Below are positions 55,332 through 56,226 of a stretch of 64,000 bases of DNA, in pieces. The notes below the pieces were generated by a model. It worked only from the letters and a program-made list of their open reading frames with translations. It had not been told where the DNA came from and did not search any database. Every line of letters starts with the position of its first letter. The stretch's first letter is position 1. Location: the NCBI RefSeq assembly GCF_056746865.1, contig NZ_CM163382.1; one strand, 5' to 3'. Both the position numbers and the translations under genes were made by a program.

Positions 55332-55335
55332 AGTG

Positions 55336-56226
55336 ATGAATAAAAAATATGAACTGGTTGTTAAGGGGATAAATAATTACGGGGATAAGGTTACTGTTAC
55401 TGTGAAGCCGGAAGGTGACGGGCAAGCGTCGCTGTTGTTGCCAGATGTGGCGATTAGTCTTGACCGTACTGAAGGTGCCACGCTGGAGTTTTACGAAGCT
55501 GAGGCGAAAAAGCAGGCGAAGCAGTTTTTCATGGATGTTGCTGCCGGGTTATGTGAATGGAACGAACCGTTGCCGGAAAAGCGCCCCGTAATTTTAGAGG
55601 CGCAGGATGTGTTGATAACCTACAAAGGAAAGCTACCGGGAAGAATTACTTGTTCTCTGAAGATGCCGCCGTCAACACTGCGGTCAGAAAAAGATGATGT
55701 TGAATCACGTATTGAAAAACTGGAGAGCTACGTCGTTGAGCTGAATAAGAAATGGTCGATATTGGTGCCTTCTGGCGATGAAAAGCAGTTTGCTGCGTTT
55801 GACGATTATTGTCGGAAAGTGATGAGCAGAAATCTCGCAGAGTGTTTCAGTATTCATAATGATAATTTCAGTGACCCGGAATGGGAGTGTAACCGGCCAT
55901 CCTTTGTTGTATCCGGTGATGCTGGGAAAATAACCATCTCAGAAAATGGGAAAGTAACACCTCCATCGCACCAGCACAGTGAGGAGCTCATTGAATTTGC
56001 CATTGATTACCTGAAGAACAATAAAAAGCAGGGGCTGATGAAGCGCGTTGGCCGTTGCATGGGATATCTTCAGGTAGCCGCTGAGATTGAAGCGCTGGCC
56101 AGTGGTGCTGATAAGGATGCAATTGTGCGGGAGGCTCTTCTTCGTGATTTTAATACTCCACCCTTTAAAAAAGTGCCGGCTTACTGGCTTCATCCGGGGC
56201 TGACTTATCTTAAAGTGCGTATTTAG
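55336..56226 (+). CDS. hypothetical 297-aa cytoplasmic protein inserted between holin and endolysin
   Basis: Long ORF with no signal peptide or TM segment, starting 2-5 nt after the holin stop and ending 36 nt before the endolysin start; GTG at 55333 is an alternative start. Confidence 0.6.
   Translation: MNKKYELVVKGINNYGDKVTVTVKPEGDGQASLLLPDVAISLDRTEGATLEFYEAEAKKQAKQFFMDVAAGLCEWNEPLPEKRPVILEAQDVLITYKGKLPGRITCSLKMPPSTLRSEKDDVESRIEKLESYVVELNKKWSILVPSGDEKQFAAFDDYCRKVMSRNLAECFSIHNDNFSDPEWECNRPSFVVSGDAGKITISENGKVTPPSHQHSEELIEFAIDYLKNNKKQGLMKRVGRCMGYLQVAAEIEALASGADKDAIVREALLRDFNTPPFKKVPAYWLHPGLTYLKVRI

Follow-up and report, generated by a model that had tools for sequence, protein, structure and literature searches.

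The window analysed here, 64,000 nucleotides of contig NZ_CM163382.1 (assembly GCF_056746865.1), is 100% identical to Escherichia coli CFSAN061770, in which the gene discussed below lies in a lambdoid prophage integrated beside potC. The lysis cassette of this prophage (Table 1) has a class II holin gene of the S21 type (S), named 'class II holin family protein' in RefSeq and matching phrog_9876 (E 1.8e-40) and phrog_20 (E 2.4e-34), and continues with an R21-type lysozyme (R) that carries a Gly/Ala-rich, SAR-like segment at its N-terminus; both neighbours are as a first-pass annotation had described them. Between the two, the six-frame ORF list contains, as that annotation reported, an open reading frame of 297 codons at 55333..56226 on the + strand. 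The slot between R and the spanin genes is also filled, by two hydrophobic ORFs annotated as hypothetical (56953-57135, 60 aa, and 57150-57281, 43 aa), and in phages 933W, BP-4795 and 86 it holds the ant antirepressor gene. A TonB-family gene (58062-58388, 108 aa) lies between the spanin and terminase genes, and in one locus with a distant homologue of the 297-codon ORF (L006) a TonB_C gene stands past the lysis genes on the opposite strand.

Table 1. Features of the lysis cassette and late leader region, with the modules of the gene between S and R (positions in the window).
Feature	Position	Strand	Description
STnc100 sRNA	51650..51854	+	Rfam RF02076, 133.5 bits, E 5e-30
Class II (S21-type, pinholin-like) holin, S	55116..55331	+	71 aa, dual start MYQM
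Shine-Dalgarno GGAG	55323..55326	+	within the final holin codons; 9 nt before ATG 55336
YdfR/DUF1327 long-form gene	55336..56226	+	296 aa; Pfam, PHROG and RefSeq name
N-domain, aa 1-75	55336..55560	+	DUF1327 core: three beta strands and a long helix
Variable middle, aa 76-182	55561..55881	+	linker, then predicted helical stretch around SRIEKLESYVVELNKK
C-domain, aa 183-296	55882..56223	+	three short strands and four helices, pI 8.9
R21-type (SAR) endolysin, R	56263..56796	+	177 aa; PHROG 7 endolysin, E 1.9e-62; RefSeq lysozyme
Rz spanin gene	57278..57751	+	PHROG 13 Rz-like spanin, E 1.6e-73; end of lysis cassette
Rz1, embedded in Rz	57504-57689	+	lipobox LVVSAC, from translation of the embedded ORF

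The earlier proposal that the ORF is co-transcribed with the lysis genes agrees with the layout of the region, which is one same-strand array. No promoter-like site was found on the + strand in 51500-58500, nor any convincing terminator between S and R, where the single hairpin (56185-56202) shows 3 G-C pairs, followed by a poor T tail. Upstream, STnc100 is the sole Rfam match in 51000-59500 and ends in a strong terminator-like hairpin (51824-51845; 9 pairs, 7 of them G-C); by analogy with lambdoid phages, the two probably constitute the late-promoter leader and terminator (pR'/tR'), with the late operon read under antitermination. With neither signal detected there and STnc100 standing upstream, co-transcription would be the most economical reading. 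The hairpin is followed by iraM on the opposite strand (51880-52215), within an island of 31-38% GC. An IS3-family element (50296-51524) is inserted between a DUF1133, antiterminator-like gene (49183-49737) and the STnc100/late-leader region, and an IS4 element and several frameshifted genes occur elsewhere in the prophage, which may be partly defective in view of these insertions and frameshifts.

The boundaries given for the ORF stand, with a correction of one codon at its start, since the GTG at 55333 is followed immediately by an in-frame ATG at 55336. Most of the full-length family members shown begin M(N/K/T)xxYEL, corresponding to ATG 55336, and the 296-aa product of that start, named "YdfR family protein", has exact copies on 746 contigs in a protein collection from which the 297-aa, GTG-start product is absent. 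As homologue N-termini match this start and only the 296-aa product is on record, the gene most likely runs from 55336 to 56226. The holin stop TAA (55329-55331) is separated from the ATG by 4 nt, an A and then the GTG, and the ORF stop TAG (56224-56226) precedes the R start ATG at 56263 by 36 nt; both distances agree with those first noted. The visual impression of low GC was also right, in that the ORF has 46.2% GC (GC3 46.8%) against a flanking range of 54.5-55.7%, including the holin (55.1%), R (54.5%), Rz (54.9%) and an esterase gene (54.7%). A cytoplasmic location, as had been supposed, is plausible because no transmembrane segment is evident in the 296-aa protein with a 19-residue Kyte-Doolittle window, the top mean being 0.75. 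Comparison of homologues indicates that the ORF is a genuine coding gene and not a chance reading frame, given that relatives of 27-44% identity keep the same domains and that, between close alleles, pairwise dN/dS in the C-domain is 0.17-0.36. An antisense ORF of 145 aa (55939..56376) was treated as spurious.

The 296-aa protein had been described as lacking recognisable motifs and a family, but it is a clear member of the DUF1327/YdfR family and of PHROG 1085. PF07041 (DUF1327) matches residues 2-101 (E 4.5e-40, 136 bits, model positions 1-88 of 93), and phrog_1085 matches at full length (E 6.8e-190, 296/296 profile positions, residues 2-297 of the GTG-start translation); all nine PHROG matches are labelled 'unknown function', with sub-families covering N-terminal, middle and C-terminal pieces. 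E. coli K-12 YdfR is identical at 37 of the first 78 residues (47%; BLASTP E 6e-21). The named members of the family are in all cases from Escherichia, Shigella or Salmonella, and clustering at 50% leaves 74 representatives among 1.84 billion proteins. The gene is matched at least in part by 2702 of 5426 complete E. coli genomes, with 495 matching at least 80% of it, and its DNA is 100% identical in many of these genomes, including ST131, under the RefSeq name 'YdfR family protein'. RefSeq's annotation of NZ_CP023142.1, and of an ST131 genome in which the DNA is identical, covers codons 1-112 alone (55336-55671) and enters them as a pseudogene of a 'YdfR family protein' ('incomplete; missing C-terminus'), yet the 296-codon ORF is intact and its C-domain is thereby left unannotated. 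This is a known, widespread and catalogued family in its usual place, without a proven function, and its membership largely explains the finding as first framed, of an unknown gene unusually wedged between S and R.

AlphaFold2 (AF2) predicts two confident domains in the full model, residues 1-73 and 183-296, joined by a middle region in which pLDDT falls below 50 over residues 74-117 and 136-182. In the N-domain, pLDDT exceeds 90 in three 10-residue blocks and is 71-79 in the other four; this domain includes the motif EGxxLExYE (residues 46-54), which an alignment shows to be kept in more distant homologues, and is homologous to the segment of K-12 YdfR that has been reported to bind RNase E. 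In the model the middle consists of short strands and then long helices (122-171), a stretch that may form a coiled coil, and alleles differ in length here through insertions and deletions. The C-domain, modelled alone, reaches a pLDDT of 87.5 and a pTM of 0.80, and 16 of its residues, among them H214, G239, R240, Q246, P276, K278, W284, P287, G288 and Y291, are invariant in an alignment of sequences 30-41% identical to the protein encoded in the window, with E250 and E252 nearly so. The low dN/dS of this domain indicates that it is under purifying selection. In the N-domain the corresponding values are 0.64-0.96; these rest on few substitutions and do not establish diversifying selection.

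The domains behave as exchangeable modules. Two divergent classes of N-domain, about 50% identical, recombine with the same C-terminal part, as in allele P0022, where a K-12-type N-domain is joined to the same middle and C-part (85% identity overall). The family comprises forms with the N-domain only (~103-112 aa), N-domain and middle (169-183 aa), middle and C-domain (185-213 aa), and all three (268-333 aa), and each of these four forms is found after S. Both the N- and the C-domain persist in more distant homologues, at 27-44% identity.

Profile and structure searches of the kind first suggested for this protein identify its N-terminal part as DUF1327 and the whole as PHROG 1085, whereas the C-domain has, at the sensitivity used, no detectable relative outside the family. 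No NCBIfam family model was found for the 296-aa protein, the C-domain alignment had zero matches in Pfam, and sequence-profile searches of the PDB with full-length, C-domain and N-domain alignments returned nothing below E 0.01. Foldseek comparison of the C-domain model with AFDB50 recovered family members only, the next match having an E-value of 0.4. Weak Foldseek matches of the full model in the PDB (PUR repeats, Loqs-PB, levivirus coat proteins and phiKZ Dip; best E 0.078) are insignificant, and the hint of nucleic acid binding that they might convey was rejected on that ground. Likewise, an internal duplication, envisaged because both domains start beta-beta-beta-alpha, was rejected (hhalign probability 0.7%), and no search made here supports the label 'homologous to COG0188 type IIA topoisomerase' that the depositor gave to gp05 of phage 86.

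Adjacency of S and R, presumed at first to be the norm, holds for textbook phages but not for the population, in which a YdfR-family gene often follows S. The Qin prophage of K-12 reads essQ-ydfR-rrrQ-rzpQ; a gap of 4 nt separates essQ from ydfR, whose stop overlaps the start of rrrQ. The same 4-nt spacing after S recurs in phages PhiR12 (169 aa, 'DUF1327 containing protein'), Stx2_95 (329 aa, '290'), Stx2-converting phage 86 (gp05, 268 aa) and mEp460 (gp55, 104 aa), in H-19B, where the YdfR-family ORF occupies an unannotated 400-nt gap between S and R, and in Stx2_12E129, which carries the middle and C-part only (213 aa). In 933W, S and R are adjacent, and an identical junction of S stop, 4 nt and ATG leads into R. 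As a rough measure of frequency, tblastn detects a family member in 106 phage records, against 231 with a 933W-like adjacent junction; in complete E. coli genomes, the 2702 with at least a partial match compare with 923 that have such a junction. Homologues of the 296-aa protein are thus routine in the S-R slot; none of them has a known lysis-accessory role.

In a junction alignment of six phages and prophages, the GGAG near the end of the holin gene is conserved and stands ahead of the following gene, whatever that gene is, so that in the window it can, and from its position appears to, serve as the Shine-Dalgarno of the 296-aa gene; in 933W it is R that uses it. R is left in a different setting. 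Its start in the window is preceded by the AT-rich ...TAATATATCCATG, with Shine-Dalgarno absent, and in insert-bearing cassettes (window 56227-56265) a conserved AT-rich ATAAATATCCATG precedes R, again without a Shine-Dalgarno. As the insert moves R off the strong ribosome-binding site embedded in the holin gene, endolysin translation may drop or lag, and a YdfR-family insert may thereby lower or delay it in cis.

Such an arrangement invites the explanation that the gene is an accessory to lysis timing, its product binding either the pinholin, at its cytoplasmic tail, or the SAR endolysin while this is tethered to the membrane, or the gene acting purely in cis by separating R from the ribosome-binding site. 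The constant 4-nt distance from S in E. coli is consistent with this, as are the Shine-Dalgarno-free, AT-rich leader of the displaced R and the overlap of ydfR with rrrQ in K-12. In addition, ydfR is listed among the envelope-integrity mutants of a K-12 screen (Paradis-Bleau 2014, as cited in PMC13232886), although the resistance cassette could have caused that phenotype through polarity on the lysozyme gene downstream. The protein itself, however, has no match to the holin, antiholin, endolysin or spanin families of the PHROG 'lysis' category, nor a membrane segment; N-only and C-only forms share the same slot; and 933W-type phages lyse without any YdfR-family gene. More distant homologues, moreover, precede holins of different types, with other genes in between. 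We therefore regard a role in lysis timing as unlikely.

The comparison of S-R junctions that was initially proposed has two outcomes, with E. coli-type members 4 nt after S and distant relatives elsewhere. In Salmonella-type lambdoid prophages (L007, 3639-4945; L013, 3025-5498; L015, 4127-5801) the Q antiterminator gene comes first, then the homologue and after it the holin gene; toxin-antitoxin modules (HicAB or ParE/HTH) stand beside the homologue, and a DUF4406 gene often immediately precedes it. Given that these relatives stand between Q and the holin, the feature conserved across the loci compared is a site in the late operon close to the lysis genes, where morons accumulate, and not insertion between S and R.

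This setting raises a second explanation, that the gene is a moron of benefit to the lysogen, carried in a recombination hot spot of the late region, and encodes a defence, abortive-infection, anti-defence or superinfection-exclusion factor. Its GC content, some 9 points under that of its neighbours, the high mosaicism of the family and the toxin-antitoxin neighbours of the Salmonella-type relatives are all compatible with this, and the high N-domain dN/dS between close alleles could signify an arms race. Against it, the gene lacks a promoter-like site of its own on the + strand and has an apparent translational set-up behind S that points to expression at lysis, not in the lysogen; further, the K-12 cluster is almost free of reads in standard growth (PMC13232886). 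The sole match in PADLOC-DB 2.0, to PbeC (E 0.018, 11.3 bits, about 60 residues of the helical stretch), is not meaningful. On balance this explanation appears distinctly improbable. The roles in lysis timing, abortive infection or anti-defence, and superinfection suggested at first sight thus found no confirmation, in that PADLOC and the PHROG lysis families yield no match of consequence and distant homologues lie outside the S-R junction.

A third possibility is that the gene has no current function, and is a decaying or selfish passenger kept by recombination between conserved S and R flanks. That just 495 of the 2702 matching genomes carry at least 80% of the gene, that many forms are truncated or frameshifted, and that RefSeq flags the copy in the window as a pseudogene fragment, would all be expected of a passenger. 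Such decay is difficult to reconcile with an intact 296-codon ORF found identical on 746 contigs, or with purifying selection on a C-domain that retains its 16 invariant residues at 30-41% identity, and we give this possibility very little credence.

Our literature search found no functional study of the DUF1327/YdfR family beyond one on K-12 YdfR (PMC13232886; RNA Biol 2026), and ydfR was still classed as uncharacterised in a 2024 survey of the y-ome (PMC11551758). In the former study, codons 1-72 of ydfR were recovered three times in a two-hybrid screen with RNase G as bait, full-length YdfR interacted with residues 1-597 of RNase E, its catalytic N-terminal half, and Strep-YdfR and Rne 1-598 eluted together. 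Nucleic acid that resisted DNase co-purified with YdfR, although the authors could not rule out that this RNA came from a contaminant, and overexpression of the protein altered few transcripts (PMC13232886).

The sequence comparisons show a late gene of accessory, moron-like character, carried by Escherichia/Shigella lambdoid prophages and encoding a soluble, modular product. Taken together with this architecture, the data on K-12 YdfR lead us to a reading to which we assign a probability of roughly 35%. In it, the product may be a late cytoplasmic protein whose N-domain contacts RNase E and/or RNA, and to which the C-domain adds a separable activity. The protein would then stand outside the lysis machinery and would act on the RNA metabolism of the host, in the cytoplasm and at a late stage of the lytic cycle. 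By comparison with residues 1-72 of K-12 YdfR, the N-domain would dock on RNase E, in its catalytic N-terminal half, and/or on RNA, the middle stretch could mediate oligomerisation, and the C-domain would supply a second binding or effector activity, while displacement of R from the holin-embedded ribosome-binding site would be a side effect of the insert. The link to RNase E derives from a single study of a homologue that is just 47% identical in the N-domain, and the N-domain dN/dS of 0.64-0.96, albeit from small counts, fits poorly with the binding of an invariant host enzyme. Any role is dispensable, as many inducible phages lack the gene or carry one module only. The weight left over from this reading and the three alternatives considered above falls to something else.

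A bolder version of the proposed RNase E contact, which we consider doubtful, is that of a bipartite late effector, anchored on the catalytic half of RNase E by its N-domain and acting through a second activity of its C-domain, which would reprogramme RNA decay in the minutes before lysis. If this were true of Stx-type prophages, the decay so reprogrammed would include that of the late transcript carrying the toxin, lysis and morphogenesis genes. The reported interaction with RNase E (PMC13232886) at any rate provides a directly testable hypothesis.

A phage specialist would not find the result surprising. Its relevance lies more in how common the family is, with about half of complete E. coli genomes matching it at least partly, and in its residence in the late operon of Stx-converting and other lambdoid prophages, beside genes that control toxin release. 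The S-R junction emerges as a regular cargo slot, and the textbook picture of adjacent S and R fails across natural cassettes. A conserved C-domain without a Pfam family has, furthermore, been left unannotated in several RefSeq genomes, where an intact ORF is flagged as a pseudogene fragment.

Several known systems invite comparison. Accessory regulators of lysis are encoded within the lysis cassettes of other phages, such as T4 RIII, a cytoplasmic protein that supports lysis inhibition, and LysA, LysB and LysC of P2. The likeness to these is one of place inside the lysis cassette, with T4 RIII as a precedent for a cytoplasmic location; homology was undetected, and the position of distant YdfR relatives with respect to S and R is not conserved. 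Phage proteins that modulate RNase E include T4 Srd, T7 gp0.7 and phiKZ Dip, and here the resemblance is a possible functional analogy only, that of a phage protein touching RNase E. They are early proteins of virulent phages, whereas the present gene is a late gene of a temperate phage, and no sequence or significant fold similarity was detected between them and the 296-aa protein (the Foldseek match to Dip chain 5ft0_B has E 0.32 and a match probability of 0.35). The phage members of PHROG 1085 occupy the same slot after S and have no assigned function, differing from the gene in the window in module content (104 to 333 aa) and in insertions in the middle. K-12 YdfR (b1555, P76160), of the cryptic prophage Qin, is homologous in the N-domain and holds the same position, between essQ (class II holin) and rrrQ (R-type lysozyme), but has 103 aa, diverges after about residue 72 and is without the middle and the conserved C-domain. 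As natural alleles such as P0022 join a K-12-type N-domain to the middle and C-part found in the window, K-12 YdfR looks like a truncated form of the longer protein described here.
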